A stretch of DNA of 64,000 nt from an uncultured virus (IMG/VR IMGVR_UViG_3300034104_004763) (Duplodnaviria; Heunggongvirae; Uroviricota; Caudoviricetes), in IMG/VR virus record IMGVR_UViG_3300034104_004763; one strand, written 5' to 3'. Shown here in pieces: positions 3,664 through 62,125 of this stretch. The position numbers and the translations under genes were made by a program. Within the stretch, counting starts at the first letter, position 1; each line of letters starts with the position of its first letter. Below the pieces are notes generated by a model. The model was not told where the DNA came from, searched no databases, and saw nothing but the letters and a program-made list of their open reading frames with translations.

Positions 3664-4503
3664 ATGAATTACAAAAGAATTTACAATTCGATAGTTGAAA
3701 ATGCTAATAAACAGAATCGAAAAAAGAAAGCAGGAGTTTTATATGAGCGTCATCATATAATACCAAAAAGTATAGGAGGGAGTAATAATAGAGATAATTT
3801 AGTCTTACTTACACCTAAGGAACATTACATATGTCATAGATTATTAGTTGAGATACATAAAGGAACTCCTAATGAAAACAAGATGTATTACGCTATGTGG
3901 TGTATGATTAATGGAGTTGGTAATCAAAAAAGGTATGCTACTAGCTCCCGAATTTTTACTAAGCTAAGAGAGGAGTTTATAAAAACATATACAGTTAATA
4001 GGTACGATACTAGAAAAGCTATAGAACAATATGATCTAAATGGAAACTATATTACATTTTTTGATTCTGCTAAAACAGCATCTGAATTATTAAAGATAAG
4101 TAGAGGAACTATAGAAAATTGTGCTAGAGGAGAATGTAAAACTGCAGGAGGTTTTAATTGGAAATATCTAAATAGTGATAAACAGATTACTGAGGTTACT
4201 TTTGAAAAAGCAGGAGTAAAAAAGGGAAACATTCCTTGGAGTAAGGGACTAAAATTTACCCCAGGATCTCGAAATATAGAATATAAAAAAGTACATAAAT
4301 ATACCTTAGAAGGTATTTTCTTAGAGGAATATGAAACTATAAACTTAGCAGCACAGAATGTAAGTGTAAGTAGAGGAGCTATTGAAAATTGTTGTTTAGG
4401 GAAATGTAAAACTGCAGGAGGTTTTAATTGGAAATACCAAGGAAGCTCTAAAGAAATATTAAAAGTCACATACGAAAAAGCAGGAAGAAAACCAGTAAAA
4501 TAA
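3664..4503 (+). mobile_element. Free-standing HNH homing endonuclease with two NUMOD1-like repeats
   Basis: ERHHIIPKSIGGSN..NLVLLTPKEHYICHRLL; duplicated ~90-aa unit ending CKTAGGFNWKY (identical 34 nt at 4133-4166 and 4403-4436). Confidence 0.85.
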
Positions 4504-4898
4504 AAACAATTATGAAAAAAGTTAAAGCATTTTTTGATGCAACAGGAGCATTCTTTCTTTGGTGTTGGAAATATCCAACTACACCAATTGAGAATTTTCA
4601 AGATGCACGATGTAAGTATCAATTCCAAACTGACCCTGAAATATTTAAAGAACTCAGAGAATTAATAAGACAACATGACACTAAAAGAAAAAATAACAGA
4701 TGAGTATATCTGGACTACTGAACCTATAATGGATGCAGAAGAAGTTTCTGAATCAGTAGATAAAATGATAGTAATAGCAGAAGAATTTGCTATTAATTTT
4801 GCTAATTGGTATGAGTTTATGTTAAGGCAATCAGATAATCTTAACGAAAGATTTACTCCAAAAGAATTAATTGAAATGTTTAAAAAAGAAAAAGGATT

Positions 4899-5522
4899 AT
4901 GACACTAAAAAATAGAATAAAGTATTTTATAAAGGATCTAGATTTCCTAAGAGCATATAACTCTCCATTCAAAGCACCAAGACTAAAATGGTATTGTGGA
5001 AAAATTGCCTTAGGAACTCCTTATTTCTTTCCTAGAAAGTGGGTTAAAGCAACCCCAGAAAGAGCTCATGAAGCTACATTGAAATATATAAAGGAAACTG
5101 AAGATTTTAATAAACGTAATCCTGAATATACTCGTAAGGTAAGACCTTATAATGAGATATTTGCAGATAAAATGCAATGCTCATATGCTGTACCTAAAAA
5201 AATAGGATTTGATTTTGTTAGACTTGGTTGGAAGACTAAATGGAGAAGTGATGACTACAGATTTGAATGGAGTCCAATGATTTCATTTGTATTTTTTAAA
5301 TGGCAAATAGCTGTAACATTTGTAGCACCCCACCTAGACCATTATTGGGAATGCTGGTTGTATTATACAAGAGAAACAAAACATATAGCAAAAACAACAG
5401 AAGCAAGATTAGCACTTTGTAGAAAAAAAGCACCATGTACTTGGACTAGTCATAATAGTGATGGTACAAAAGAGACAATAGATTATTACAAATTAATTTT
5501 AAAAAAGAAATGGATATGGTAG
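4899..5522 (+). CDS. Hypothetical protein
   Basis: 207-aa ORF in co-oriented cluster. Confidence 0.55.
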   Translation: MTLKNRIKYFIKDLDFLRAYNSPFKAPRLKWYCGKIALGTPYFFPRKWVKATPERAHEATLKYIKETEDFNKRNPEYTRKVRPYNEIFADKMQCSYAVPKKIGFDFVRLGWKTKWRSDDYRFEWSPMISFVFFKWQIAVTFVAPHLDHYWECWLYYTRETKHIAKTTEARLALCRKKAPCTWTSHNSDGTKETIDYYKLILKKKWIW

Positions 5523-5975: not shown

Positions 5976-6533
5976 ATGAAAAAATGTTCAAAATGTAAGA
6001 TTGAAAAGTCTAAGATCTTATTTGGTAAAAATCAAGGATATTGTAAAGAATGTAGAAGTATAATTGATAAAGAAAAAAGACTAAATAATCCCCAATATTT
6101 TAAAGATTGGTGGGTAAATAATAGGGATAAGAAAAGAGAATATCATTTAAATGATAAATCTAAAAGACATCATGTCCATAAATGGCGCGACTTATTATCC
6201 AACACTCTACAACAACTACATACTTCAAAATCCACAACTACCCAAGAATCATTAAAGTACTCAGCCTTAGAGTTAAAAGAGCATTTAGATAGATTAGGAA
6301 TGGATTGGAAAAATGATCATATTGATCATAAAATTCCTGTAAGTTGGTTTAATCCCTTAACCCCACCACACATTGTAAATGATTTAAGAAATTTACAACC
6401 TTTAAGTGGAGAAGAAAATAGAATTAAATTAAATAGATTTGGAACCCCAATAGAAAGTTCGTATATTATTATTATAAAAGAATATATTAAAAAAGAATAT
6501 TTAAACAATAACTACGAATTATTTAAACTTTAG
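5976..6533 (+). mobile_element. HNH endonuclease with N-terminal Zn finger (homing-endonuclease-like)
   Basis: CSKC...CKEC; HIDHKIPVSWF...NLQPLSGEENRIK. Confidence 0.8.
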
Positions 6534-8648: not shown

Positions 8649-9803
8649 ATGAACAATCTCGATAAACAATACACAGACCTTCTTAAAACAATACTAGAAC
8701 ATGGTATTGATAAAAAAGACAGAACAGGTACAGGAACAAAAAGCATTTTTGGATACACCATCAGACATAACATGAAAGATGGGTTTCCATTGCTTACAAC
8801 AAAGAAAATGCCATTCAAAACAATCGTAACAGAACTTCTTTGGTTCTTACGAGGTGATACAAATATTAAGTATTTGGTTGATAATAATTGTCATATTTGG
8901 GATGGTGATGCTTATAAGCGGTATATTATGTTACCAAAAAAATTATCTGAAGTTGTTTCTGATGGTGAAAAATTTAATGGTAGAAATTTAACAAAAGAAG
9001 AATTCATTAACAAAATCAAAACAGATGATGAGTTTGCTGAGAAGTGGGGTGAATTAGGTCCGATTTATGGTAAGCAATGGAGAAAATGGGCTAAATTTAG
9101 TGAGAAAGTATACACTAGGGAGATTAGAGAAGTACCTGAAGGAGGTAGATTTCCTGAAACGAGAAATGTTAATTGGGTTGGAGGAAGTGAAGTCGTGTAT
9201 ATTGACCAAATCGCAAACCTAATCAACGACCTTAAAACAAATCCAGACTCAAGACGATTAATGGTTAATGCTTGGAATGTTGGAGAATTAGACCAAATGG
9301 TTCTTCCACCTTGTCATTATGGATTTCAAGTTTATACAAGAGAGTTGAGTTTAGAAGAGAGAATGGATTACTACTATTCAAACATTCTTAAAAATAAAGA
9401 TTTAGAAGAAAAAGCAAGAAAACATACAGATGAGCAAAAAATGCAATATCTACAAGTTGCAGGTGTAGGTAATAATATTCCAACCAGAGCAATCTCTTTA
9501 ATGTTTAATATGCGTTCCGTTGACACTTTTTTGGGGCTTCCATTCAATATTGCCTCTTATGGATTGTTATTGGAAATAATAGCAAAAGAAGTTAATATGG
9601 TTCCTGATCAATTGATTGGTAATTTAGGTGATACTCACTTATATTCAAATCATATTGAACAAGCGAAAGAACAAATTAGTAGAGAACCTATGAAGTTACC
9701 AACTGTACACGTTAGAGATGGTATCTTCTGTAGTTCAGTTGGAGATGTAATATTAGAAAACTATGAATCACACCCATCAATAAAAGCACCATTATCAAAT
9801 TAA
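8649..9803 (+). CDS. thyA: Thymidylate synthase
   Basis: DRTGTGT, ELLWFLRG, LGPIYGKQWR, LPPCH, RSVDTFLGLPFNIASY motifs. Confidence 0.97.
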   Translation: MNNLDKQYTDLLKTILEHGIDKKDRTGTGTKSIFGYTIRHNMKDGFPLLTTKKMPFKTIVTELLWFLRGDTNIKYLVDNNCHIWDGDAYKRYIMLPKKLSEVVSDGEKFNGRNLTKEEFINKIKTDDEFAEKWGELGPIYGKQWRKWAKFSEKVYTREIREVPEGGRFPETRNVNWVGGSEVVYIDQIANLINDLKTNPDSRRLMVNAWNVGELDQMVLPPCHYGFQVYTRELSLEERMDYYYSNILKNKDLEEKARKHTDEQKMQYLQVAGVGNNIPTRAISLMFNMRSVDTFLGLPFNIASYGLLLEIIAKEVNMVPDQLIGNLGDTHLYSNHIEQAKEQISREPMKLPTVHVRDGIFCSSVGDVILENYESHPSIKAPLSN

Positions 9804-10020
9804 AATACATTTATTATGAGGACAGAAAAAGAAATTAGAAAAAAATATGAGGAAATGTTAAAACATACCGAATTATTGATGGATAAAGTTAGAAATCCAG
9901 ATAAATATGATGATGTTAATATTGAAAATATACAGGAACATATAAATGGTGAGAATGAACAACACCATTTAAATGCGTTAATAAAATGGGTTTTAAACGA
10001 TTAAAAATAAAATAAAAACT

Positions 10021-10257
10021 ATGGAAAATTACAAAGCGGATTACTACAATCCAGAAACATTTGAAAAATCAGAAATTGAAACTAAAATACCTGTTGATTT
10101 AGTTAAGAAAGTACATCAAGACTTAGAGTGTCTAAGAGGTTATTTAGTGACACCTACCTTGATTAACCCAGACAATAAGGACTCTGTTGTGTTTGGTATT
10201 ATGGATATGAACGACAAAACATTGAAATATAAGGTAACAATCACACCCAACAATTAA
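10021..10257 (+). CDS. Hypothetical cargo protein in thyA-end insertion
   Basis: 78-aa ORF whose stop lies inside the duplicated thyA tail. Confidence 0.55.
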   Translation: MENYKADYYNPETFEKSEIETKIPVDLVKKVHQDLECLRGYLVTPTLINPDNKDSVVFGIMDMNDKTLKYKVTITPNN

Positions 10258-10276
10258 AGCACCCTTAAGTAATTAA
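10241..10276 (+). repeat. Orphan duplicate of thyA 3' end
   Basis: Encodes SHPTIKAPLSN* versus thyA SHPSIKAPLSN* (9768-9803). Confidence 0.9.
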
Positions 10277-10532
10277 AAAATGGCCAAAGCAACACTTAAA
10301 TACGATATTTCAGATCCAGATGAAAATGTGGATTTTAAAAGAGCAGTTAAATCCTTTGATATGGCTATGGCTTTATGGGATATTCTTCAATTGAGAAACA
10401 AAATAGAAAATAGATTTGAAGTTCAAGATAATACCAACAATGATGTGTTTGATGGAATAGATGCAATGGCTGAAGGTATTGGAGATATTTTAGATCAACA
10501 TGGTATAATAATAGATGAATTATTAAATTAAT

Positions 10533-10871
10533 ATGAATTTCGTACTAGGATTTCTTTATGGCTTAATAGCCCAAATACTTACTTTCTTTCAATTACAAGG
10601 TCAGTTTAAATACGAATGGGCAAAAGAAAATCCATTTGTAATGTCTTTAATAGGCATTCCACTATCATTACTATACATACAATCAGTAAAGTATTTAGTA
10701 GTGCATTTTGATGGACAATTATGGCCATCACGGTTATTAGGATTTGCAATAGGGGCAATTGTATTTACTGGAATGTCTTGGGCTTGGTTTAGAGAGCCTC
10801 TATCTTTAAAAACTTTAATCTGTCTTGGATTAGCAGTTTGTATAATGTTAATCCAATTATTTTGGAAATAA
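10533..10871 (+). CDS. Small 4-TM membrane protein, DMT/SMR-like
   Basis: Four hydrophobic segments; WFREPLSLKTLICLGL resembles DMT C-terminus. Confidence 0.6.
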   Translation: MNFVLGFLYGLIAQILTFFQLQGQFKYEWAKENPFVMSLIGIPLSLLYIQSVKYLVVHFDGQLWPSRLLGFAIGAIVFTGMSWAWFREPLSLKTLICLGLAVCIMLIQLFWK

Positions 10872-11002: not shown

Positions 11003-11464
11003 ATGAAATTTCAATCAACAAAAATCTTTGACGGGTACTCTACAGTATTTCGTCAATGGAGAGCAGATGGTACTCATTGCCAATTCCTACATGGTTATGG
11101 TATTTCTTTCAAAATTATCTTTGAAGGAGACCTAGATGAAAGAAACTGGGTATGGGACTTCGGAGGAATGAAAAGAGCTAAAACTTGGATTGATGGTATG
11201 CAACCTAAAGAGTGGATGGACCATATGTTCGATCACACTACAATTATAGCAGAAGATGATCCATATTTAGAAAACTTTAAAGAAATGTGGAAAGATGGAA
11301 TAATTCAATTAAGAATAATTCCAGCTACAGGAGCAGAACAGTTTGCTAAATTCATCTACGATAAAGTATCTAAATTTATTAAAATAGAAACTAATAATAG
11401 AGTAAGAGTAGTGAGCGTAGAATTTAAAGAACATAGTAAAAACTCAGCAATATATGGAGAGTAA
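11003..11464 (+). CDS. queD: 6-carboxytetrahydropterin synthase
   Basis: CQFLHGY, WVWDFG, FDHT, terminal E-H-x-x-NSAIY; adjacent to queE. Confidence 0.85.
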   Translation: MKFQSTKIFDGYSTVFRQWRADGTHCQFLHGYGISFKIIFEGDLDERNWVWDFGGMKRAKTWIDGMQPKEWMDHMFDHTTIIAEDDPYLENFKEMWKDGIIQLRIIPATGAEQFAKFIYDKVSKFIKIETNNRVRVVSVEFKEHSKNSAIYGE

Positions 11465-12239
11465 ATTAAAAAGAATAGAAGATTATAACAAAACACTCCC
11501 TATTGTAGAGCTTTACACAGCAGTACAATCAGAAGGAAGTAGAGCAGGTTATCCAACCGTAGTAATAAGAACAACAGGCTGTACTCACAGATGTTGGTTT
11601 GGTGATGGAGGTTGGTGTGACAGTTGGTACACTAGTATACATCCTGAGAAAGGACATATCAGTTTCCAAGATATTATTAACATGTATGATGCAAATCCTC
11701 ACATCACAGAGATGATGTTAACAGGAGGATCACCTACAATGCATCCAGCATTAGTAAATGAATTAACACATTTTGCACATGATAGAGGAATATTTATTAC
11801 TATTGAAACCGAAGGGAGTCACTTTTTGGAGACTGATTACCCTATTAACTTACTTAGCATTAGTCCTAAATTTTCTAATTCTGTTCCTAAAGTGGGGGTA
11901 TCGACACCTCAAGGGGACATCGTTGATGAGAAAATGATCAAGCAACATAATAAGTTAAGACTTAACTACGATGCAATTTCTAAATCAATTGCTTATCATT
12001 CTGATTATCACTTAAAACCAGTATGGGATGGAGAAGATCAAGAAGCATTAGCTGAAATTATGGCTTGTATTAAGATGTTAGACATTCCAGAAGAAAAAGT
12101 ATGGTTTATGCCAGCAGGAGATTCAAGAGAAGCTTTATTCAAATCATATCCAAAAATGTTTGATTGGGTTAGAGATAATGGATATAGATTGACATGGAGA
12201 CCACACATTATAGCTTTTGAAAGTGAGAGATGTGTGTGA
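11454..12239 (+). CDS. queE: 7-carboxy-7-deazaguanine synthase (radical SAM)
   Basis: VQSEGSRAGYPTVVIRTTGC, LTGGSP, IETEG and SISPK motifs. Confidence 0.88.
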   Translation: MESKLKRIEDYNKTLPIVELYTAVQSEGSRAGYPTVVIRTTGCTHRCWFGDGGWCDSWYTSIHPEKGHISFQDIINMYDANPHITEMMLTGGSPTMHPALVNELTHFAHDRGIFITIETEGSHFLETDYPINLLSISPKFSNSVPKVGVSTPQGDIVDEKMIKQHNKLRLNYDAISKSIAYHSDYHLKPVWDGEDQEALAEIMACIKMLDIPEEKVWFMPAGDSREALFKSYPKMFDWVRDNGYRLTWRPHIIAFESERCV

Positions 12240-12260
12240 TAATATTTAAAGATTAAAAAT

Positions 12261-12848
12261 ATGGAAAATCAAATTACAAAAAGAATGATGGACATTGTAG
12301 GTCCAGTTACAGATGAGCGACATGCTTTTGGTAAATACAAACAGGAACCTAACCCAGGAGGTTATAATGTAGTAGCACTAACAGATAAGCAAATACAGCA
12401 AGTAGAGCAGTTAGTGATAGATCACTACAAAGTAAAAAAAGTACTCTGGATGGAAATACCATCAGGACTAACTGAAGATGGAGAGCAAGCAATAGTTGCT
12501 CAAACACACAAACTACTAGATACAGATATCCTATACGAAGGAAAGACTGCTTATGTATATCAAATTCTCTTTACTCCTAAAATGTATGATCCTAAAACAA
12601 TACATCAACCAGTAAAGGATGGATGTACATTCGGACCTCTACTATATAATCCTGAAACATTCGAACCTTCAAGATCAATAACAATTACATTTAGCCCTAC
12701 CTTTCCACAAGATATAGATAGTAAAGAAGATCAGGAACAAGTAATGAAACAATTTTTACATGATAAACTTGACAAAGTTCTAACAAATCCAGAAGAGTAT
12801 ATACCAGAAGCTTTCAGAGGATGCATGCTAAGATTTGCAGCAAAATAA
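12261..12848 (+). CDS. Hypothetical protein inserted after queE
   Basis: 195-aa ORF with no recognised motif. Confidence 0.55.
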   Translation: MENQITKRMMDIVGPVTDERHAFGKYKQEPNPGGYNVVALTDKQIQQVEQLVIDHYKVKKVLWMEIPSGLTEDGEQAIVAQTHKLLDTDILYEGKTAYVYQILFTPKMYDPKTIHQPVKDGCTFGPLLYNPETFEPSRSITITFSPTFPQDIDSKEDQEQVMKQFLHDKLDKVLTNPEEYIPEAFRGCMLRFAAK

Positions 12849-13047
12849 AAGAGAGGTATAATGAGATTAAAAGAAGCACATATGACAGAATTTGATTTAC
12901 TAAACGCTGTGTGGTGGCTTTATTGTAATCAAAAAATTATTAAAGAAGAAGTAAAATTCTATGTAGAAGATTTGGATCTTGAATTAGAATTTATTACATT
13001 AGACGGATATAAATTTATAAGTACAGATAAAAAAACAACTTATTCTT

Positions 13048-13743
13048 ATGACAGAAAACAGAAAAAAAATTCATAACAATTTAGAAATCGTTCCTGTAGG
13101 TTATGCAAACGGTATAGCACCAGGTTTTCCTCTTACCGAAAGGGAAAAACAATACATGATTGAAGATGCAGCCGAAGCATATGGTCAATTTTTAGATGCA
13201 TTAGGATGCGACTGGAGAAATGATCCAAATTCAGCAGATACACCAAGACGTGTAGCTAAAGCTTATGTTAATGATTTATGGAAAGGTAGATACACTCCAA
13301 TGTCTGAAATTACCTCATTTCCTTCAGATGGTTATGATGGAATTGTAATCGAAAGAAATATTCCATTAACTTCAATGTGCTCACACCACCACCAAACAAT
13401 TGGAGGAGTAGTACATGTTGGTTATGTAGTAGGTGAAAATGGTAGAGTAATTGGTTTATCTAAATTAAATCGAATTGTAGAACACTTTGGACGTAGAGGA
13501 GCAATTCAAGAGCAATTAACTTCAGCTATTCATCAAGCAGTAGATAAGATTTGTGAAAATAATAGAGGTGTAATTGTTTCTATTGTTGGTACTCATAATT
13601 GTGTATCTTGTAGAGGTGTTAAACATCAAGGTGCTTCAATGGTTACTACTAAAGCATCAGGTGTGTTTATAGAAAATGGAAATTTAGCTAGAGAAGAGTT
13701 TTTTGACTCAATTAAAATTAATAACGGTAATCACCCAGTATAA
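13048..13743 (+). CDS. folE: GTP cyclohydrolase I
   Basis: TPRRVAK, SMCSHH, GLSKLNR, QEQLT, HNCVSCRG motifs. Confidence 0.95.
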   Translation: MTENRKKIHNNLEIVPVGYANGIAPGFPLTEREKQYMIEDAAEAYGQFLDALGCDWRNDPNSADTPRRVAKAYVNDLWKGRYTPMSEITSFPSDGYDGIVIERNIPLTSMCSHHHQTIGGVVHVGYVVGENGRVIGLSKLNRIVEHFGRRGAIQEQLTSAIHQAVDKICENNRGVIVSIVGTHNCVSCRGVKHQGASMVTTKASGVFIENGNLAREEFFDSIKINNGNHPV

Positions 13744-15675: not shown

Positions 15676-17406
15676 ATGAGTTATAAAAATATAACAACTA
15701 CTTCATTAGGTAAAAATAGATATAATATTACTTTATGGACTGATGATGGGGTAGAACAACATGAATTCCAAAATTATGCATATGAAGTGTGTAGCCAAAA
15801 CCAGGCTACACATTTTGGTCTAAACGGAGAACCTTTAAAAAAAGTAACTTATTGGGAAGGGAATAATCCATTTATTCATTATCATGATATGCCTGTTCAT
15901 CAAAAGTTTTTGATTGACAAATACGGCATAAATGATGAACCTTCTACTACTCATCAAGAAATATTCTTTGATATTGAGATTGAAATGGGTGGTGCACTTA
16001 CACCTGAGTATATTAGAAAAGCACCTAAACCAGTTACATCAATTGCTTGGTGGCACAAACAAGAGGATAAGTGGTATATTCTAATTTTAGATAAAGAAAA
16101 TAAAATTGAAAAAACTACTATAGGGAATAAGCACATTATTCCTGTACCTAATGAAAGAGAGTTATTAAATAAATGGTTAAATTATTTAAATAAAGTTAAT
16201 CCTGATATTTTAATTGGTTATAATAGTGATTATTTCGATATACCTTACCTATATTATAGAATCTTAAATCAATTAGGTGAACGTAGAGCTAGTGCTTTAT
16301 CTCCAATAGGTAAAGTTAAAGAACAAAAGTATACTAGAGATGATGGAGTTGCAATTTATAATGAAGATCAACCAATAAGAATAGAAGGAATGTATTCTCT
16401 TGATTATATTCGTTTACATAAAAAATATTCATTTGCTGATGAACCTTCTTACAAATTAGATTCATTGGGAGAAAAATATTGTAAATTAGGTAAAATTGAA
16501 TATGAAGGTAGTTTAGATAGATTATTTGAAACTGATAAAGATAAATTCATTGAATATAACTTTCGAGACGTTGAAATCCTAAAAGCATTAGATAATAAAT
16601 TCAATTATATCAGTTTAACTAAAAATCTAGCACATAAAGGTAAAATTCACTATGATGATGTTTATCAATCATCTAAAATTCATGATGGTGCTATTTCAGC
16701 CTTCTTATTATCAGAAGATATAATTCCACCTTCACGTGATAGAAACCCAATTAAAAAAGCTAATTATGCTGGTGGTTATTTGTTTTGCCCTAAAGCAGGT
16801 TTATACCGCTATATGTTTGATGAGGATTTAACTTCACTATATCCTTCAATTATTATGTCTTTAAACATTGGTAAGGAAACATTAGTAGGTAGAATTATTG
16901 ATTTGAACGATAGAAACAATCACTTAGGTCTAAATGACTTAATAAATGATACTGAAGATAAACCGCGTACTACTGAATGGTTTACTAACAAAGATAAATT
17001 CAATAAAATTGATTGGACTTCTTCTAAAATAGTTAAACTACTCCAACAATATAATTTGGCTATCTCAGCAAATGGTGTTATCTTTCGTACAGATAAAGAG
17101 TCCGTATTATCAACTATCTTAAATAAATGGTTTGATGAAAGGGTTTTATATAAAAACTTAATGAAAAAAGCTTACAAAGCCGGAGACACAATAGGAGGTG
17201 AAAAATATCATTTATTACAATATACAATGAAGATCTTACTTAACTCACTTTATGGTGCTACAGCATTACCAACATTTAGATATGGTAATGTAATTTTATC
17301 AGAAGCAATTACATTAAGTGGTCAACGCATTATTCAAGAATCAGCACTTTGTGCTAATAGACATATGAATCAAGTAATTAGAGGTGAAATTAAATTAGAG
17401 ATATGA
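15676..17406 (+). CDS. polB: Family B DNA polymerase, N-terminal half (3'-5' exonuclease, motifs A and B)
   Basis: FDIEIE, GYNSDYFDIPY, YNFRDV, DLTSLYPSII, KILLNSLYG; lacks motif C. Confidence 0.92.
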   Translation: MSYKNITTTSLGKNRYNITLWTDDGVEQHEFQNYAYEVCSQNQATHFGLNGEPLKKVTYWEGNNPFIHYHDMPVHQKFLIDKYGINDEPSTTHQEIFFDIEIEMGGALTPEYIRKAPKPVTSIAWWHKQEDKWYILILDKENKIEKTTIGNKHIIPVPNERELLNKWLNYLNKVNPDILIGYNSDYFDIPYLYYRILNQLGERRASALSPIGKVKEQKYTRDDGVAIYNEDQPIRIEGMYSLDYIRLHKKYSFADEPSYKLDSLGEKYCKLGKIEYEGSLDRLFETDKDKFIEYNFRDVEILKALDNKFNYISLTKNLAHKGKIHYDDVYQSSKIHDGAISAFLLSEDIIPPSRDRNPIKKANYAGGYLFCPKAGLYRYMFDEDLTSLYPSIIMSLNIGKETLVGRIIDLNDRNNHLGLNDLINDTEDKPRTTEWFTNKDKFNKIDWTSSKIVKLLQQYNLAISANGVIFRTDKESVLSTILNKWFDERVLYKNLMKKAYKAGDTIGGEKYHLLQYTMKILLNSLYGATALPTFRYGNVILSEAITLSGQRIIQESALCANRHMNQVIRGEIKLEI

Positions 17407-17554
17407 AAAAATTAGGATTTGAAACTCAAGATAATGGAGTAATATTTACAACCACTCTACCAGCACGTTGGATTGCTGATCTATTAGTTAGGTTGGGGTA
17501 CTTAACAAAACTGTTTAAGTACTGTTATGTAATAAATAAAAAACACTTAATATA

Positions 17555-17818
17555 ATGGCATTAAAAGGACAATCAATTAGAAACGGGGTTACTATTAACG
17601 TAAATGGAGTTAAAGCTGAAAAACAATTAGTTATTGAACTATCTGAAAATTGGGATGCTTCACAAGAAAAATTCTTTAAGAAAATGTTACAGCAAGGAGG
17701 TAAATGTAAAGTTAATGGAAACTCATTTGAAATAATTCTTAAAGAAAGATCAGATATAGATTCAAAAGGAAACAGACCAATTAACCTACCACCAGTACCA
17801 GGAGAAAGAACATTTTAA
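17555..17818 (+). CDS. Hypothetical protein between the polB halves
   Basis: 87-aa ORF; a ~50-aa ORF (17403-17555) precedes it. Confidence 0.6.
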   Translation: MALKGQSIRNGVTINVNGVKAEKQLVIELSENWDASQEKFFKKMLQQGGKCKVNGNSFEIILKERSDIDSKGNRPINLPPVPGERTF

Positions 17819-17819
17819 T

Positions 17820-18755
17820 ATGAAGCATTTAGAAGATACTCCATGGTGGATATGTGATGAAGGTGATTTTAACTTTTGTGCCTATGTGGACACAGACTCT
17901 AATTACTTTAATGCTGAGCCTTTATTAAAGTATCTATACCCTGATTTTGATGAAAAGCCTGACCAGGAAAAAGATGATTTACTAGAGAAAGTAGCTCTTA
18001 AATACCAAGATATTATAACAGAACATTATAACACACTCGCTAGAGACGCCTTTAATATTACTACACACCGATTAGAAATGAAAACCGAGTGTGTTATTCG
18101 TTCTGCTTACTTTAGAGCCACAAGACGTTATGCTCAATGGATTACTAAAAAAGAAGGTATAGCTAAAGAGGAGTTAGATATTAAAGGATTAGAATTTAAA
18201 AAAGCTAATTTCCCAAAATATTTTGGTAAGTTTTATCAAGAAATTCTTGAACTAATTATTAAAGGTACTGCACAAAGTATTGTTGATAAAAAAATTCATG
18301 AATTTAGACAAGAAGCTACTTCATCTGATGTTGACTTTACTTTAATTGGTAATCCTACATCTGTTAAAACTTTAAATGAGTATGTAGCTGCTCATCCTAG
18401 ACCAGGTAAAATACTATCTGAAATAAAATCCGGAGCAGGTGCTTCTGTTAAAGCTGCTGTTAAACATAATGACCTATTAAGATTTTGGCAATTAGATTCT
18501 AAACACAGTCAAATAGTACAGGGTGATAAAGTAAAATGGGTTTATTTAAAAAACAATCCTTACAATATAGAAGCAATTGCCTTTTTAGAATTTGATATGG
18601 CTGATAAAATTAAAGATTTTATTAATGAATACATTGATAGAGGTAAAAGTTTTGAAACTATATTACAGAAAAAATTACAAGGGTTTTATACAGATCTTGA
18701 ATGGGTACTTCCGCCAAGTAATCCTAATATCTTTAAATTCTTTATGTTTTCCTAA
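17820..18755 (+). CDS. polB: Family B DNA polymerase, C-terminal half (motif C, thumb)
   Basis: YVDTDS motif C, RRYA, IKGLE. Confidence 0.9.
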   Translation: MKHLEDTPWWICDEGDFNFCAYVDTDSNYFNAEPLLKYLYPDFDEKPDQEKDDLLEKVALKYQDIITEHYNTLARDAFNITTHRLEMKTECVIRSAYFRATRRYAQWITKKEGIAKEELDIKGLEFKKANFPKYFGKFYQEILELIIKGTAQSIVDKKIHEFRQEATSSDVDFTLIGNPTSVKTLNEYVAAHPRPGKILSEIKSGAGASVKAAVKHNDLLRFWQLDSKHSQIVQGDKVKWVYLKNNPYNIEAIAFLEFDMADKIKDFINEYIDRGKSFETILQKKLQGFYTDLEWVLPPSNPNIFKFFMFS

Positions 18756-18812
18756 TTATATTTGATATTTATAATAAGACGGGAAATCACCCGTCTTGTA
18801 AAATACAATATT

Positions 18813-19349
18813 ATGGTAATATATCAAATTGAAAATTTAATTAATGGTAAAAAGTATATTGGTAGAGATTCTTTAAATAGACCTGGGTATCTAGGAGGAG
18901 GAACTGCTATTAAAAACGCTATTAAAAAATATGGTAGAAAAAACTTTAGTAAGATTATTATTGAAGTTTGTAAAGATTATAAACATCTCTTAGAAAGAGA
19001 AGAATATTGGTTAAATTTTTATAATGTAGTTAATAATCCTAATTTTTATAATATGATTACATCTTCAAATGGGTGGGAAAAAGGTAAACCAAGACCTGAA
19101 AAATTAGGTAAACCAAGAAGTCAAGAAACCAAAGATAAGATTAGTAAAGCTGGTAAAGGTAAAACAGGTAAAACATCTGGCAAACCTATTCCTGTAATAC
19201 AATATAAATACGAAATTATTAAAACAAAAATAGCTGAATTTCCTTCAGCTGCCGAAGCATCTAGAGTAACAGGAATATTATCTTGTGATATAAGAGCCGT
19301 AATAAAAGGAAAACAAAATACAGCAGGGGGTTTTATATGGGGTAAATAA
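18813..19349 (+). mobile_element. GIY-YIG homing endonuclease (Seg-like) with NUMOD3/NUMOD1 motifs
   Basis: MVIYQIENLINGKKYIG; RSQETKDKIS; TAGGFIW. Likely start is ATG 18813 rather than 18762. Confidence 0.85.
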
Positions 19350-19394
19350 CCTCCAGCAAATCCACTAATACATAAATTTTTTACATTCAACTAA
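19350..19394 (+). repeat. Orphan duplicate of polB-C 3' end
   Basis: PPANPLIHKFFTFN* versus PPSNPNIFKFFMFS* (18711-18755); its TAA overlaps the next ATG. Confidence 0.88.
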
Positions 19395-51076: not shown

Positions 51077-52197
51077 GTTTATATTAACAATAATAGTATT
51101 ACTAAGTTTAACTTGTAATGCACAACGAAAAAATAAAGCATTTGACCGTAGATACTTTTATCATTGGGAATCAGTTAACCCACAACAATTTGATATGGAA
51201 ATTATCATCTATAAAGAGAGTGGTAAAGCATATGTAACTGAATTTAAAGCAGATCATGATGGTAAGTTAGGTGGAGGAATTTTATATGCTACAGTTTATG
51301 TTTGTAGGAATAAAAAAGGTAGAATGGCTGTAGAGACAATTGATCCTTCTACATTACAAATTATAGATAGTGAATATATTCTCACTAAGGATAAACAACT
51401 ACTAAGAGTAACACAAAACGATACAATCACATTTAAAAGAAGACATTAATATGATACGAGCAATAGTAGGAGCGATAGCAGCAGGATTAGTTTTAAGTGG
51501 ATTTGTAATAGGTTTTACTTTAATTATACAAGGTATAACAAAAGACATACGTAAAAATGGAAAAAACAGGTAATACTGAAAAACTCAAATACGAATTTGA
51601 GACTGCTGCTAATTTAGAAGTGTTTATGCCTAACTTAAAGGATTGGTATAGAGTAACCGCAAGAGAATTCCGTTCATTCACAGGAAAACGACGTATAAAC
51701 AACGTGGAATATGATGGTGATGTGTATCTGTATGGAACTAATAAGTTAGCTGATTTAAAAACTGTTATTCAAGATAGATTAGCAGGGTTTAGTTGGGTTT
51801 CTAAAAGAAGACCTGGAGAAGATTAGGAGAATTAAAAATTTTTTAGTATATTTAAATCATCAAATAATAAATAATGACAGAAAAATATTATCAAATATTA
51901 TTGAAAACAGGAAAAGTTCATCCATCACTTTATGTTAATCTTCAAACAGCCATTAGAAAGGTAGGAGTAGAAAATGTTAAGGAAATTAAGGAAATTAGAG
52001 CAGAATTAGTTAATGCCAAGTACAACGAAATAGTGGGAACAATTAATATAGAATAGTATGTCTAAAACATCATCAAAAAATAAGTATGAGCAATTAATGG
52101 CCTGGTTACCAACATTAAATCAGCCTAAAACAAAAGTAGAACAATCAACAACTAAATTCAGCAAAGCTGATCATTACAAATCTAAAGGAGTAAAATA

Positions 52198-52359
52198 ATG
52201 AGTGAAAGAAAGCAGATTATTAGTCAAGTAAAAGAGTTAGGTATTAAAACAAACAAACCTGCTCACATGTGCACTACAACTTATCTTAAAGGATTGTTAC
52301 CTAAAGAAGAAGTTAAGATTGGGTTTTTTAAGAGGGTTTTAAGAAGATTAGGCTTTTAA
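52198..52359 (+). CDS. 53-aa protein sharing its N-domain with ORF 58231 (not in ORF track)
   Basis: IISQVKELGIKTNKPAHMCTTTYLKGLL versus IIAEVKKLGLTTEKPAHQCKTEYLQELL. Confidence 0.65.
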   Translation: MSERKQIISQVKELGIKTNKPAHMCTTTYLKGLLPKEEVKIGFFKRVLRRLGF

Positions 52360-52406
52360 AGCCTTTCTTCGTATATTAGGGTATTATTAATTTAAAAATA
52401 AAGGTT

Positions 52407-53204
52407 ATGAGTTTAAAAGCATTATCAAAAGAGGAGTTAAAATCATTAGCACCTCAAACATTCAATCATGTAGTTAGTTCAAATTTAACTAGCAAGTATG
52501 TTCACATTCCAACAGACACTATTGTTGAGGACATGGAAGCATTAGGATGGTTTCCATTTAATGTTAAAACTGTTAAAGCAAGAAAGAAAAATGCTCAAAC
52601 AGCTAAACACTTAATTCAGTTTTTTAATCCTGATATTGTTATTAATGATGAGGAGGGTAAAGCTGATATGGTTCCAACATTATTGTTAATCAACTCACAT
52701 GATGGTTCCACAGCTGTTAGGTTTGAAATGGGTGTGTTTCGTTTTGTATGTGAAAATGGTTTAGTTGTTAAATCAAAGGACTTTGGTGGGTTCAAAATGA
52801 AACACATGGGTTACACATTTGAAGACTTAAGAGTTCACATCAATAACATGGTAAAGGAATTACCAACTGTAGTTGCTAACTTAAACAAGTTCTCACAAGT
52901 TGAAATGACACCTGAACAACAACATGAGTTTGCTATTAAGGCGGTTGAGGCTCGTTTTGGAGAAGAAAAACAACTAAATGATGAAGAAATTAAAAACTTA
53001 TTAGTAGCTGAACGTAAGGAAGATGTTGGTAATAATGTTTGGGTTGTATTGAATCGAGTGCAGGAAAAATTAACAAGTGGTGGGTTTAGTTACTTAGGTG
53101 TTAAAGGTAAACCAAGAAAAGCACGAGCGGTTAAGAATTTCACACAGGACGTTGAAATGAATACCAAATTATGGGAATTAGCTGAGACATATTTAGTTAA
53201 TTAA
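52407..53204 (+). CDS. DUF932/DUF945 family protein
   Basis: LLLINSHDGS, GVFRFVCENGLV, WVVLNRVQEKL, NTKLWELAE. Confidence 0.85.
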   Translation: MSLKALSKEELKSLAPQTFNHVVSSNLTSKYVHIPTDTIVEDMEALGWFPFNVKTVKARKKNAQTAKHLIQFFNPDIVINDEEGKADMVPTLLLINSHDGSTAVRFEMGVFRFVCENGLVVKSKDFGGFKMKHMGYTFEDLRVHINNMVKELPTVVANLNKFSQVEMTPEQQHEFAIKAVEARFGEEKQLNDEEIKNLLVAERKEDVGNNVWVVLNRVQEKLTSGGFSYLGVKGKPRKARAVKNFTQDVEMNTKLWELAETYLVN

Positions 53205-54170
53205 TAAAAAGGGGCCTAGTATTAGGCCCCTTAAATTTGACTTCGTATATTAAGGCATAATTAAAAATAAAAGGTTATGGAAAAATTATTTAAAGATGTA
53301 GATTATTTTATTATTGAAGCATCAAATCGTACACACACTGAATTTGAATTAGACTTTGTGGATGTTATTGAAGTATTTGATGCAAATTCTATAACATTAA
53401 CTACTGAAGATGGTAAATCATTAAAAATTACTTATGATGAAAGAGGTTACTTTAAATCTTACTTTGTAGATGTAGAACCTATTACTCATCTAATGAGTCA
53501 ATCATCTTATATTGAAAGTCAAGTAAAAGACATTATCAAAACTCTAAAACATTTAACATATAATGGTCAAAGTGTTGATGGTGAAACTATGCAATACATT
53601 CTAGAGAAGGTAGGTATGCAAGACCAAATGCTAAAACAATTAGTAATGTCTCAACCAATAGAGGAGGTTAGGTATGTGTTTGAGGAGAGAGAAGAATTAG
53701 AAGAATTTAATAAAAAATAATTAAGTTATGAGAAAAGTAATAGTTAAGTACAAAGACAGTGAACAAGCACTAACATACAACATTGTTAGTTTTAAAAATG
53801 ACAAACGTCAAATTCTAGTTGAACATTTAAAAGAATTCTTAGCAAACCCAAGAGTAGAATCATACAAAATTGTAGACATATCAGGACGATTATCAGACCC
53901 TGATAAAGAAAGTAAATCATACGAGTCAAAATACGAACGGGAAAGTAATAAACTGCCTAAAGTAATTGCTAATGAGGTAACACAAGTTGCTACTACATTA
54001 AAGGGTTGTACTAAGGAAACTGTTGATAAATGGAATAAACATCTCGATTTTGATTTACATACAAAATTAAATGGTGAGTACGGGTTTACAGGTGCTAAAA
54101 GGTTATATAACATATTTGGCTTGTAAAATTTAACTTCGTATATTTAAGTATAATTTAAAAAATAAAGGTT

Positions 54171-54947
54171 ATGATAGTAATTCAAGCATTAGAAGAACAA
54201 AAAGCTGTCTTCAAAACACAAAAGAATGAACTAGAAGAAGCTAGATCTGAAATCTACACAAGAAAGGAACAAGCAATGAGTGATGCTTTAATCCCTTACT
54301 TTGAAGGGTTCAATCCCGATGTTTACATTGAGGTAACAAGAGGATCTATTTATTTTAAAATGGACCACTCCGAGTTAAATCGTAGAAAGGAATTATTTAC
54401 CCTTTATTTAAGAGAAAGATATTTTGAAGAAGGGCAACGTTATGATGGAGTTGATTTATCTTATTATACAACTTCAACAAAAGGAGATGATGAATGGGAA
54501 TTAAAGAGATTGAGAATATTAGGTGACATAGCTGATGTTGTATTAAAGCGTCAACATGATATAGTTGACACTGCCAATTATACTTCAAATCTTTTTAAAG
54601 ATGAGTTTACAAGAAGTTATAATCAAATGAATCTAATAAACAAAGCTATTAGAGAATTAGATGAAAAAATCTCAGTTATTAGTAAAGAGAAAATTGCATT
54701 CGATTTGAAGAATGGAGGAATTCAATTTAAAGAAACAGCTTATATTGACTTAAAACATAATTACACTCCTAGAGTTAACAGCATTAAATTAATTGATTTC
54801 TCACCTTCAGGTAAAAAAGCAACTGCTGTATTTACATGGGCACATGGTGGTCAAGAAGGTAGAGAAGAAGGTGTAAATGTAGGTAGAGTAACTGATCAGG
54901 TAGTAGGATATGCTAATATTATTATTAAAAAAGAATTGGCTAATTAA
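54171..54947 (+). CDS. Hypothetical early protein
   Basis: 258-aa ORF with its own promoter. Confidence 0.55.
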   Translation: MIVIQALEEQKAVFKTQKNELEEARSEIYTRKEQAMSDALIPYFEGFNPDVYIEVTRGSIYFKMDHSELNRRKELFTLYLRERYFEEGQRYDGVDLSYYTTSTKGDDEWELKRLRILGDIADVVLKRQHDIVDTANYTSNLFKDEFTRSYNQMNLINKAIRELDEKISVISKEKIAFDLKNGGIQFKETAYIDLKHNYTPRVNSIKLIDFSPSGKKATAVFTWAHGGQEGREEGVNVGRVTDQVVGYANIIIKKELAN

Positions 54948-54991
54948 ATTTAACTTCGTATATTAAGACATAATTAATAAAATAATAAGTT

Positions 54992-55252
54992 ATGATAGTA
55001 GAAAAATTATTACAAGAAACAGCTAACAAGCGAATCTTTTCAGTTACGTTCATTAAACGTACAACAAAGGAGGTCAGAAAAATGAACGCTATGAGAGGTG
55101 TTCGTAAGGGAGTCAAAGGTGTTGGTTTACCATTTGAAGCATCAGAAAAAAACCTATTAACGGTCTATGACATGAAGAAAAAAGGATTCAGACATATCAA
55201 TTTAAATGATGTGTTAGAATTTACTGCTAACAAACAAAAACATGTAAAGTAA
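54992..55252 (+). CDS. Small SH3/WYL-like beta-barrel protein
   Basis: FSVTFIKR..EVRKM...VYDMKKKGFRHIN. Confidence 0.55.
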   Translation: MIVEKLLQETANKRIFSVTFIKRTTKEVRKMNAMRGVRKGVKGVGLPFEASEKNLLTVYDMKKKGFRHINLNDVLEFTANKQKHVK

Positions 55253-55881
55253 TTATGAGCTTAGTTAGTGATTGCTGTGGAGCATATTCAGAATATGCTG
55301 GTGATATAGACATTTGTCCTGATTGTTATGAACATTGTGAGTTTTATGATGATGAAGAGGAGGATGAGGTTGAAGATTTAAGAGATCCTAATGGAGAAAA
55401 TTAAATAAAGTAATTGGCTAAATAAAATAGTCTTCGTATATTTAAACTGTTAATTTAAAAATAATAAGTTATGTTTAAAACAGAAAAAGCAAGAGAGTTA
55501 TTTAGTCAATTACTAGATGTTAATTGGAAAATTGATAATAAAGAGTATCGTTCACTTGAAGAACGAGTTGAATTAAATACTGAGTATCATAAGTTATATC
55601 AGGGATTAATGTTAGAAATGGGTACAAAGGAGTTTACTGAGTTTATGGAGATGGGTAATAAATTGTTTAATTAAAAATAAAAGTTATGACATTACAGGTT
55701 ATCAATACTAAAAAGGAAAAATTCAATCAAATTCGTTCAACAAAAGAAACATTATTTGCTGATGTAAAATCTCAAGGTTGGAATCTTCAAGATTGTAAAG
55801 TAACAGAACTAAAAGAAGAATTAGTTTATACTTTATATAGAAGTGCTGACGGTAAAAATTCAGCAAATTATTAAATAAAAA

Positions 55882-56027
55882 AGTCAGGTGGCGGAATTGG
55901 TAGACGCTACGCAATTATACTTACGAGTAAACTACCACCATAAATCTAAATTAGGTTGTACAGAAACGATTTAGTAAGGGTAAGTTGATAAAAGGTTTAC
56001 ATACAGGTTCGATTCCTGTCCTGACTA
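55882..56027 (+). ncRNA. tRNA-like RNA with intact acceptor, D and T arms but a ~95-nt insert in place of anticodon/variable arms
   Basis: AGTCAGG/CCTGACT acceptor stem; GCG-GAATTGGTAGA-CGC D arm; ACAGG-TTCGATT-CCTGT T arm. Confidence 0.75.
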
Positions 56028-56082
56028 CTATTACAACATAAGTGTTTCATAACCACTTATTATTTTTAATTATACCCGTGAT

Positions 56083-56104
56083 TAGCCCCGAAAGGGGCTA
56101 TTTA
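56083..56104 (+). terminator. Intrinsic terminator
   Basis: TAGCCCC-GAAA-GGGGCTA-TTT. Confidence 0.7.
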
Positions 56105-56659
56105 CATTATTTGGTTAATTAAAAAAGACTTCGTATATTAAAGCATATTAATAAGTTAAAACAAATGTTATGGAACCTAAAGTAATAAAACAGAAAATGA
56201 CTGAATTTATTAAAGAAAATTCTTTATTAATTCAAGAATTGAAAGATGAATATGGTAGAAAATATTGGATGGAGGAATTTTATAATGAAAGTAAAGTTCA
56301 AACATTTATGAACTCCTTTATCCTCACTAAAGAGGAATTAGAAGATTATGGACATGGGTGGACGGATGAAAAAGATGAGATGTTTTATGAATTACTTAAT
56401 AAAAAATAACTTATAAAAAATTTGGATAGTATTAAATTACTTAGTATATTAAATCATATTAATAATAAAAATAATAAAGGTTATGACAGAAAAAGAATGT
56501 AGAGAAGCTTGGGAAAAGTATCAACAAACTGCTCACCCTGAAGACATGATGTCTTATATGGAGTTTAGAAGTGAAATGGGAATTGAGGACGAAGAGGAGT
56601 ATTAGGCTTATTAAATTAGTCTTCGTATATTAAAGTATAATTAAAAAATAATATAAGTT

Positions 56660-57019
56660 ATGGCAACAAGAAGTAGAATTGGAATTCAAGACGAGAATGG
56701 AACAATACGTTCAATCTATTGTCACTGGGATGGTAACCCTGATGGAGTAGGAGCTACATTAGAAGAGCATTACTCAAACCGACAAAAACTAAACATGCTA
56801 ATTAATTTAGGTGATATTAGTATATTAGGTGAGAACATAGCTACAATGGATGAACATTCATTTAACAACCCTAAAGAAGGTGTAACAGTAGCTTATCATA
56901 GAGATAGAGGTGAAGAATTAAAACCGGCCCGAGTTGATATTTCATTAGACACATTTTATGTATCTGAAAAGTATGGTTATGTTTATACTCTAGAGGGTAA
57001 ATGGGTAACTTTTAGTTAA
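56660..57019 (+). CDS. Phage early hypothetical protein
   Basis: MATRSRIG...SIYCHWDG...AYHRDRGE. Confidence 0.6.
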   Translation: MATRSRIGIQDENGTIRSIYCHWDGNPDGVGATLEEHYSNRQKLNMLINLGDISILGENIATMDEHSFNNPKEGVTVAYHRDRGEELKPARVDISLDTFYVSEKYGYVYTLEGKWVTFS

Positions 57020-58230
57020 GTTTGGCAGTTAATTAATTTCTTCGTATATTTAGATGTAAATAATAATAAAATGAAAGTAGTACAATTTACATTACAAGAA
57101 AGATGGGCTGCATCTAAACACATGGTTCAAAAGAACAAGAAGAAATACAACCGTAATGAAAAGCATAAAAAGGATTCTAATAAGAGTCCTTATTTAGTTT
57201 CTTTGAGTGTATAAATTAGCTTCGTATATTAAAGTATAATTAAAAATATAAAAGATTATGAAAAAATTTATTAAGGGTTTATTTAATACTAATACAGGGT
57301 ATTTTATAAATACAATTTCATACTACTATGAAGGTAAATATTATACAGGGTACATTTTATGTAAAGGTTTTATTATATTTGGGATACCGGGATATGATCG
57401 AATAGAAATATTTCTTAATAAAAATGAGGCTGAGACTTCTTTAAATAATTTAAAATAATAAAGTTATGCCAAAAGGACAAGGAACAATCAATTATTGGGG
57501 AGTAGATATTGATATTGAATATTACTATGAACCATTAGTAAGAGGTAGAATGTATATGGACAATGGTGATCCAGGTTATCCTGATGAGGGAGGTGAATTC
57601 TGTATTGAAAAAGCATTTATTGGGGGTCAGGATGTAACTGAATTACTAGAAGATAAACTAGAAGCAATAGGGAATGCTTATTATGATCAATGTGATGGGG
57701 AATTTTAATACCCCGTTTGGCAAGTATAAATTAACTTCGTATATTAAATCATATTAATAATTAAAAATAATAAAGTTATGAACAAAACGCAAACAATCGA
57801 TTTATTAAAAAGTCAAATGCCTGGATTCTATTCAGTAGAACAAGTTATCAATCTTATCGAAAAGATTGAAGAAGAAGAACAACAAGCAACTGCTAAACTT
57901 ACTTTCGATCAAGTTAGAGAACTTACTCGAAGTATTGTTAATGCAATTGAAGAAGAAGCTCAAAGAGATAACATCGTTAATTTTGAAGATGTTGAATTTG
58001 AATTAGGTTGGGATAGAAAAATTGAAGTAACAGACGTTCCAATTAATTTTGATGCAATTAGAGATTGTGTTGAAGAACAATTGATTGAGTTCTTTGAAAT
58101 AGAATCTTTATTCATATCTTTAGGTATCAATAATTAAAATGAGGGGCCATGTATTTGGCCCCTATAAAATAGCTTCGTATATTTAGAATGTTAAAAAAAT
58201 AAAAATAAGTTTAATTAAAATTTAAAGGTT

Positions 58231-58632
58231 ATGAACAGAAATGAAATTATCGCAGAAGTAAAAAAACTAGGTTTAACAACAGAAAAACCAGCACATCAGT
58301 GTAAAACAGAGTATTTACAAGAATTACTCAATTCACAATACTTTATTGTGACAGAGGTAAAACGTAAAGGTAGACCAGTAAGTGAAAACAGTAACCGACA
58401 AAAACGAATTGCTGAATTAGAAGCAAAACGAGCTGCTGGTGAATTAAGAAAAGGTAGACCGGTTGTTGAAGGAAGTAATCGCCAAATAAGATTATCACTT
58501 AAAGGTACTCTTAAATTAGGTAGAAAACCAAATCCTGAAAGTGCAGCTTACAAACGCAGAATGGAATTAGAAGCTAAACGTGCAAATGGTGAATTAAAGA
58601 GAGGTAGACCAGCACAAGTAAAAGCAGAGTAA
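58231..58632 (+). CDS. Basic protein with repeated GRP (AT-hook-like) motifs
   Basis: RKGRP x2, LGRKP, KRGRP; repeated ELEAKRAxGEL. Confidence 0.65.
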   Translation: MNRNEIIAEVKKLGLTTEKPAHQCKTEYLQELLNSQYFIVTEVKRKGRPVSENSNRQKRIAELEAKRAAGELRKGRPVVEGSNRQIRLSLKGTLKLGRKPNPESAAYKRRMELEAKRANGELKRGRPAQVKAE

Positions 58633-61600: not shown

Positions 61601-61916
61601 ATTTTTCAAGTTAATTAAAACCATTAAACATTATTTGGAGTGTATAAATATTCTTCGTATATTATATTATAATAATTAAATAATAATAAGTTATGAAAGC
61701 AAAAGTGCAAATTAAATCAGTGTTTGAACAAATCGCCAACAACGTATTTACAATGAAAGATGTTAACCAAGCCAAGGTATTCATCACCGAATTTATCACC
61801 AGTAAAGGTATAGACGGTGTAGATAAAAATACTATTGTGAATAACGTTAGCAGATGTACTAATATTAATCAATTACAACGTTACGTGTGTAATTCGTTAT
61901 TGATGTACGAAGGAAT

Positions 61917-61943
61917 GGGAGTTAGTTAAACTCCCGTTTTTTT
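61917..61943 (+). terminator. Intrinsic terminator closing the early-gene array
   Basis: GGGAGTT-AGTTA-AACTCCC-G-T7. Confidence 0.75.
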
Positions 61944-61965
61944 ACTTTTTTTTGAAATAAAATTT

Positions 61966-62125
61966 GAGGGGACACCCTACCCGAACGGGCATGCACCACA
62001 CACGAACGGGCACGGGTTGGTGTCGAATGCCCACACGTCGTTGCTGTCCGTACACGAGATGGTGTCGAACACGTGTAAAATTTCCGCACCTTTCAGATCG
62101 AAAACGATCTTTCACCCAGGCCCTC
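61966..62125. other. GC-rich non-coding element with direct and inverted repeats
   Basis: CGAACGGGCA x2, TGGTGTCGAA x2, GACACC/GGTGTC, AGATCG-AAAA-CGATCT. Confidence 0.6.

Follow-up and report, generated by a model that had tools for sequence, protein, structure and literature searches.

The best reading of the data presented here is that in a group of large aquatic phages orphan copies of the end of thyA, called tails in the following, join swappable accessory genes into rows which resemble an integron but are built without an integrase. The model proposes that breaks at the tail, probably made by an endonuclease, create the joints and that recombination from tail to tail would then shuffle the cassettes. 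The stretch of DNA analysed, 64,000 nucleotides long and called the window, would be the one-cassette state (genes A and B) of a hot spot at the 3' end of thyA where cassettes accumulate. Judging from sequences, we give the model and this placing of the window a joint probability of about 0.5. What is new here is a repeat-mediated shuffling of cassettes in which the 3' coding end of an essential gene serves as the repeat. We found no paper describing thyA-tail arrays, although subscription papers on Immutovirus or phage homing, or supplements, could hold a description; the available part of the moraphage paper (PMC12619734) does not mention thymidylate synthase. The locus bears on the question of how large lytic phages, lacking integrases, acquire their many small accessory genes: the site of insertion, its joints and the pool of cassettes can be read in the sequence, with the endonucleases at the thyA end as a candidate trigger.

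The window is an AT-rich, one-strand part of a large phage which is present in lake-water metagenomes; RNA runs cover it in small shares only. The best annotated relatives of its thyA are Immutovirus Flavobacterium phages (55% identity), in which the gene order is similar. The coordinates are presented in Table 1.

Table 1. Features of the window at the thyA locus and at the polymerase locus used for comparison.
Feature	Position	Strand	Remarks
thyA, thymidylate synthase, 384 aa	8649..9803	+	PF00303 E=6e-93, phrog_160; array anchor
Functional thyA tail, last 12 codons and stop, wild-type Ala codon	9766..9803	+	First joint
Cargo A, 62 aa, predicted two-helix hairpin	9816..10004	+	Sequence relatives, predicted structure
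Cargo B, 78 aa, stand-alone alpha/beta phage family (predicted fold)	10021..10257	+	Last codons and stop inside the orphan
Orphan thyA tail, 36-38 nt up to the stop	10239..10276	+	Second joint
First gene past the orphan, 83 aa	10280..10531	+	Directly behind the gene upstream of thyA in L499
Polymerase C-terminal gene with foreign tail, followed by a GIY-YIG gene (18762-19349); the resident 14-codon tail is displaced and ends at 19394	17820..19394	+	Comparison locus

The initial annotation of this DNA stated that the thyA tail is duplicated around two genes, and the duplication is real. The thyA end SHPSIKAPLSN and the second copy SHPTIKAPLSN (10241-10276), each followed by a stop codon, agree in 10 of 11 amino acids, and 6 of 36 nucleotides differ, including a serine switch between TCA and AGT. 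As repeat D3 (9766-9805 and 10239-10278) the copies are alike at 34 of 40 nucleotides (85%), and both open with the same 11-mer. Among the 127 ORFs of the window the orphan is the best stop-anchored tail copy with a score of 56, followed by the polymerase tail (51) and the rest at 31 or less. With a tail matrix it scores 60, whereas shuffled loci reach at most -2.3 and reverse strands at most 1.7.

An assembly artefact could be suspected from the fact that, among the matching contigs listed, none covers both tail copies. Against this, contigs of run X2 match the window at 9475-10049 and 10072-10535, and contigs of run X3 at 9674-10049 and 10182-10332, with 0 differences. Each junction is thus bridged in contigs of other studies, which argues that the duplication is no artefact, and cultured phages have the same anatomy. 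One run X2 contig has the thyA end joined to B without A. Joints from 9725/9731 to 10238/10240 were considered as traces of an excision and rejected; their sides are shorter than 30 nt and derive from thyA ends of relatives. The related proposal that the cargo consists of fragments of a decayed endonuclease is contradicted by intact, conserved, full-length families: A has full-length relatives in 23 viral loci and B in 28 (2 of these cut by contig ends), B stands alone, mostly with 72-105 aa, among 71 representatives, and dN is well under dS in 11 of 11 cargo pairs, i.e., the cargo is under purifying selection. Both proposals are largely refuted.

Profile searches (Pfam, PHROGs, PADLOC) also agree with the claim that A and B hold no nuclease motif. 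The same searches gave no match pointing to a function, the best Atlas hits, 0.85 for A and 0.77 for B, are to unnamed clusters, and for the predicted fold of B neither BFVD nor PDB gave a match at E<=0.001. The stop codon of B (10255-10257) is indeed supplied by the orphan, in a frame differing from that of the tail. The shared 11-mer had been taken as a plausible crossover point, and as the mark of a recent insertion this was not borne out. A whole tail lies behind B in 19 of 26 complete B loci and a partial remnant in the other 7, and the last beta-strand of B is a natural microhomology with the tail; distant B proteins have a similar strand and no tail. B with its tail is an old unit joined at this microhomology, and the 11-mer is therefore no marker of a recent event.

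The thyA tail of the window is wild type, not recoded, and there is no remnant of an endonuclease. An empty allele with thyA, its tail and gene 10280 in a row was not found, as the 10280 family stands directly behind thyA in 0 of 68 loci. The nearest relative (L499 in genome G010) lacks the whole thyA block, and none is found elsewhere in its 35.6-kb fragment; the gene upstream of thyA is joined directly to the 10280 homolog, and the flanking genes are 87-93% identical in nucleotides. A displaced resident end is therefore only a candidate for the origin of the window orphan.

The evidence for a hot spot comes from relatives. The loci collected first, by thyA similarity and by pattern, hold 149 distinct orphan thyA tails in 69 junction families, and with a further pattern search 134 distinct tail-to-tail cassettes of 124-1930 nt (median 440) in 93 families were collected; as some of the phages are related, the counts are not independent of each other. 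Of 80 loci picked by thyA similarity alone, 6 have extra tails. The longest rows noted have 8 (L386), 6 (L485) and 5 orphans (L098). The same cassettes recur in differing order, the commonest of them both as first and as internal cassettes, and 24 downstream gene families are found directly behind thyA in some phages and behind an orphan in others. Units from repeat to repeat have been gained and lost between related phages, which is seen in the arrays, in the cassette families and in cultured phages: immuto 3-5A and 2-6A are 95% and 99% alike on the two flanks, and carry different cassettes with shortened orphans at the ends. As 2-6A and 3-5A/13-6C grow on one host, Flavobacterium sp. LMO8, and differ in their cassettes, capture and shuffling should be directly testable.

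The cassettes use the tail in several ways. In the 58 classified families (11 further families had no assigned ORF) the cargo ends with its own stop at -36 in 15 (negative numbers count back from the tail end), at the shifted-frame -19 stop of the tail in 20, and in frame in 4. About half of the downstream starts lie 10 nt or less from a thyA stop. Close copies of the tail are confined to the thyA locus. In three complete genomes with 646 ORFs of at least 100 aa, thyA is the sole gene with a nuclease-free orphan tail; one further orphan tail that is not due to paralogs was seen, and it lies beside a NUMOD1/NUMOD3 gene. In L349 (genome G003, about 4000-5200) a putative NUMOD-bearing endonuclease and one cargo gene are enclosed by a 25-codon orphan tail, which belongs to an FAD-type oxidoreductase-like gene. 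Some loci deviate from the usual anatomy; L232, L233, L407 and L414 have only an N-terminal piece of thyA before the tail arrays, with the remainder not nearby, and L095/L242 have three tails and no thyA within 4.5 kb upstream.

The orphans could be thought of as target-site duplications, with flanking copies identical at the time of insertion. The Leu recoding common to thyA and the next two orphans in L432, and a small excess of same-array identity at -10..-1 (+0.048±0.019), would agree with this. However, same-array identity is about zero or negative over the rest of the tail, the window copies are set apart by the three-base change between TCA and AGT, each of which is common among thyA alleles, and neither Cas1 nor a reverse transcriptase was found in 5 of 5 complete orphan-bearing genomes, which also separates the arrays from casposon or retro-element insertions, as do the 6 of 36 nucleotides at which the flanking copies differ. 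We consider a target-site duplication very improbable.

The first step of the model, the break, is suggested by the genes found next to thyA. In relatives, GIY-YIG and HNH genes sit directly behind thyA genes whose tail is recoded. A nuclease gene follows 11 of 24 thyA ends without the Ala codon (-15..-13) and 2 of 157 keeping it (p=1e-9), an earlier and smaller count having given 8 of 12 and 2 of 125; seen from the other side, 11 of 13 nuclease-adjacent ends are recoded. Among the other 13 recoded ends, L453 has a GIY-YIG gene by Pfam, L463 has a similar one by eye, L488 is a mis-call, and L102 and L479 keep remnants of an endonuclease. At least four enzyme types are found behind thyA ends, several with zinc-finger and DNA-binding domains of the I-TevI type. 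The nuclease-domain cassettes are first in the array in 9 of 9 cases (among the 134 cassettes) and can have wild-type orphans downstream, as would be expected if the target included sequence on the upstream side of the junction; L232 has a non-catalytic endonuclease remnant in an internal position.

From the lack of nuclease motifs in the cargo it had been suggested that the insertion route is not limited to homing endonucleases. This stands insofar as neither cargo gene is a fragment of a nuclease and most inserts bounded by tails are nuclease-free, 125 of 134 cassettes having no match to an endonuclease catalytic domain. The same cargo is, however, found behind GIY-YIG/HNH genes, A and B together in L097 and L245 (A following a GIY-YIG gene in both) and B in L093, L100, L101 and L104, and deletions of the endonuclease which leave a nuclease-free cassette are visible in L102, L106 and L479. 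In L106 only the leader and the last codons of the endonuclease remain, and in L245 the GIY-YIG gene is fused in frame to the old tail, followed by A and B. The absence of a nuclease today is therefore compatible with a nuclease origin.

Other arrangements were noted at these loci. In L245 (2357-4463) the usual thyA is replaced by a shorter type (276 aa) with a GIY-YIG gene. In L082/L086 (659-2858) thyA is split into genes of 163 and 235 aa by an HNH-like gene and B, and a second GIY-YIG gene lies behind the recoded tail. In L091/L092/L094 (2499-4237) a GIY-YIG gene and B lie behind a gene of 231 aa for an RNA-ligase-like N-terminal part (PHA02142 OB fold) and seem to have split the ligase-like gene; possibly B travels with endonucleases as a rule.

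The position of the junction is the second line of evidence. In the sets collected without a forced length most clear orphans start 33-39 nt before the stop. Two large orphan sets came from a pattern forcing a boundary at 35-38 nt and are unusable for a histogram; the boundary histogram of the 69 families, with 48 at 35-38, carries the bias of the search pattern and was excluded as evidence. Microhomology at gene ends is enriched about threefold at -44..-41 and -22..-19, and accounts only for the fine peaks at -38 and -35. The 33-39 nt peak is not absolute, since orphans of only 21-29 nt occur; of about 21 distinct non-thyA matches to a relaxed pattern, about 13 were clearly short. The long ones dominate. 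Short orphans can arise by deletion, as in immuto 3-5A. Against the 13 short orphans stand 16 long ones obtained under a strict pattern which catches only 7 of 40 orphans otherwise found. Orphans longer than the peak also occur in a few cases. A segment scan for short orphans gave noise at threshold 17 (97 matches, compared with 96 on reverse strands) and only scores of at least 28 were used.

The enzyme I-TevI leaves 23/25 nt between its cut and its binding site. If the recoded codon marks the binding site, this spacing would put the cut near -38; this is a fit, and the cut site a predicted one. The I-TevI motif CNNNG fits -40..-36 in the Glu allele only, a minority, and not in the common Gln allele. 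According to the parts of the papers available, enzymes of the I-TevI type cleave DNA upstream of where they bind, the zinc finger fixing the distance, and leave 2-nt 3' overhangs (PMC5009752, PMC3664794). A cut beside the Ala codon, derived from a 16-nt remnant in L102, was dropped; microhomology with the endonuclease leader accounts for the remnant.

An account without nucleases is a real possibility, though on the doubtful side. It postulates homology-facilitated illegitimate recombination during co-infection, anchored in thyA and ending at random microhomologies, followed by a length filter which lets orphans of about 35-40 bp alone survive and spread, since those above this length would be recombined out and those below it would be poor joints or harm the start context of the next gene; the endonucleases would be late invaders of the same hot spot. 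It agrees with the 125 nuclease-free cassettes, with A and B standing directly behind a wild-type thyA in several relatives (A without an orphan in L248/L249), with the short and the few long orphans, and with the downstream starts close to the thyA stop. It also agrees with array-bearing thyA ends deviating less from the common tail sequence, with 2.2 synonymous mismatches against 4.0 (p=1e-4; in protein-ascertained loci p=0.05), and the available part of PMC5361080 puts forward the same model for Vibrio T6SS arrays. The endonuclease-made break has difficulties of its own: the motif fits the minority allele, the window tail is wild type with no nuclease remnant, several endonuclease insertions, e.g., L055 and L082, have no orphan, the 68 loci contained no empty window allele, and the immuto phages, which carry orphans, gave no GIY-YIG match in an insensitive search. 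But the nuclease-free account leaves unexplained why nuclease-free orphans are found only at thyA among the 646 ORFs of the three complete genomes, why junctions are scarce at the positions richest in microhomology, and why endonuclease deletions are visible.

The second step, the proposed shuffling, is supported by the variants of the tail. Those in its last 10 nt are associated with the downstream gene (+0.081±0.022) and those in the block -36..-28 with the upstream gene (+0.085±0.036), with no linkage mid-tail; linkage at both edges is as expected of exchanges inside the tail. By analogy with the PeSL cassettes (PMC2839356), we infer homologous exchange between tails as the simplest reading for the movement of cassettes. 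RecA-like genes are found in 5 of 5 genomes, 2 of them above the cut-off.

Alternatively the tail could be the attachment site, and gene ends the secondary sites, of a dedicated integron-like capture by an unrecognised recombinase of phage or host. The sharp junction window, the cargo stops placed exactly at -36 or at the -19 stop, and the closeness of the orphans to a single DNA consensus would be expected from this, but synonymous variation runs along the whole tail, and the linkage profile has no single crossover point. PF00589 and PF00239 are absent from G003, G004 and the two immuto genomes (W01, W02) and present only in G002, whose one PF00589 match lies about 14 kb off the array, and no tyrosine recombinase was seen near thyA among the window ORFs. 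It should be noted that such family searches are soft and divergent genes can be missed; the PF01541 search was blank in G003, which has the NUMOD-bearing ORF between duplicated tails. Folds of both tail copies on both strands were no better than shuffles (z 0.5-1.1). No age polarity was detected along the arrays, the last tail being more decayed in 4 of 12 informative arrays (p=0.39, Spearman -0.09), a comparison of weak power. A resemblance of the tail to an Xer dif site was considered and dropped, given the synonymous variation and the wrongly placed junction. We regard a dedicated recombinase as improbable.

The preferred model can be stated in two steps. In step 1, which is inferred, a break would occur at or just left of the last 12 codons of thyA, most likely made by a GIY-YIG/HNH homing endonuclease targeting the tail, acting either in cis and later lost or in trans during mixed infection. 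Another phage genome would serve as repair template. At the left end homology in thyA would let a new tail and the genes behind it be copied in, and the right end, still carrying the old tail, would be attached through a short microhomology of a few bases to a cargo gene, at its end or close to it, giving the junctions of cargo and tail about 35-38 nt before the stop. In step 2, supported by the comparative data, tails of 35-40 bp would act as homology joints for a RecA-like recombinase of the phage, and tail-to-tail units, the endonuclease gene included, would be gained, lost and reordered; this step rests on the 134 cassettes in 93 families, the commonest being both first and internal. The tail would give the cargo its stop codons and, plausibly, the next gene its start-site context. 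Tentatively one may go further and suppose that the thyA-end homing endonucleases, often acting in trans, do the work of an integrase for a capture platform resembling an integron, in which a fixed cut sets an essential-coding joint of 35-38 bp and a clade-wide pool of about a hundred cassette families is captured and reshuffled. If endonucleases do create the joints, selfish genes would have built a gene-capture platform for their host genomes.

It is useful to compare the arrays with known systems. Integron cassettes are single-ORF units ending at attC, a joint which often holds the stop of the ORF. The thyA arrays likewise are rows of single ORFs ending at a joint often with the stop, and draw on a common cassette pool in varied order; they differ in having no IntI or other tyrosine recombinase nearby, no attC hairpin and no detectable polarity. 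In fungal mitochondria, atp6 and rps3 have free-standing homing endonuclease genes with a replaced 3' end of the host gene; a paper on this was not found in our literature search. As with free-standing homing endonucleases, a nuclease lies behind a recoded end with the old end downstream, at the window polymerase and at thyA of relatives. Unlike these, most thyA units are nuclease-free, the target would lie at the very C-terminus instead of in the active-site region, and there is no intron; the hallmark of a homing insertion, a nuclease gene between the copies, is absent in the window (A and B) and present in 9 of 134 cassettes of relatives. I-TevI and I-BmoI are GIY-YIG enzymes targeting thymidylate synthase, as stated in the parts available of PMC5009752, PMC3664794 and PMC3943268.

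The PeSL cassettes of the T4-type phages RB49 and phi1 (Arbiol et al., 2010, PMC2839356), in the part of that paper available, are accessory ORFs between short repeats, gained and lost by recombination from repeat to repeat without an integrase, as in the thyA arrays, and the authors themselves liken them to integrons. The PeSL repeat holds an early promoter and a stem-loop, whereas the thyA tail has no hairpin or terminator above shuffles, and no promoter in a sigma-70 scan, which leaves Bacteroidota promoter types outside. The thyA joint is furthermore the coding 3' end of an essential gene at one locus only, gives cargo its stop codons and is an endonuclease-associated site. The available part of the study of effector-immunity arrays of the V. 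cholerae T6SS, ascribed to homology-facilitated illegitimate recombination (Kirchberger et al., 2017, PMC5361080), cites Rhs C-terminal displacement as a related case. Such displacement arrays are also anchored in a conserved upstream gene and grow as the old 3' part is pushed downstream. In such arrays the orphan would keep the resident's downstream gene; at thyA, 24 downstream families are found behind thyA as well as behind orphans, and the 10280 family stands directly behind thyA in 0 of 68 loci. The thyA arrays differ in having a metabolic anchor, a displaced end of 12 codons and near-constant length, cargo unrelated to the anchor, and no age polarity. By their defining features the thyA-tail arrays are neither integrons nor PeSL cassettes; they seem to work like PeSL shuffling and displacement arrays, and to look like an integron.

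At a second locus of the window, insertion of a GIY-YIG gene has turned the last 14 codons of the resident polymerase gene into an orphan tail. Of the 16 close relatives examined at this site 15 are empty, 11 of them with the orphan-type tail in place, the comparison covering 25 of 80 loci. The Family B DNA polymerase is encoded in two genes (15676-17406 and 17820-18755, within 15676-19394) with an 87-aa ORF in between. Free-standing endonuclease genes with no duplicated tail detected are found at 3664-4503 (HNH-NUMOD1) and 5976-6533 (endonuclease VII-like). Past the cassette site, as in Immutovirus, lie homologs of queD, queE and folE of the 7-deazaguanine pathway (11003-13743), and an untailed homolog of a common cassette gene is found at 12261-12848. 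An intergenic motif of about 60 nt (blast) occurs many times before small ORFs at 51500-62000, with copies near 1000, 3100 and 7580.
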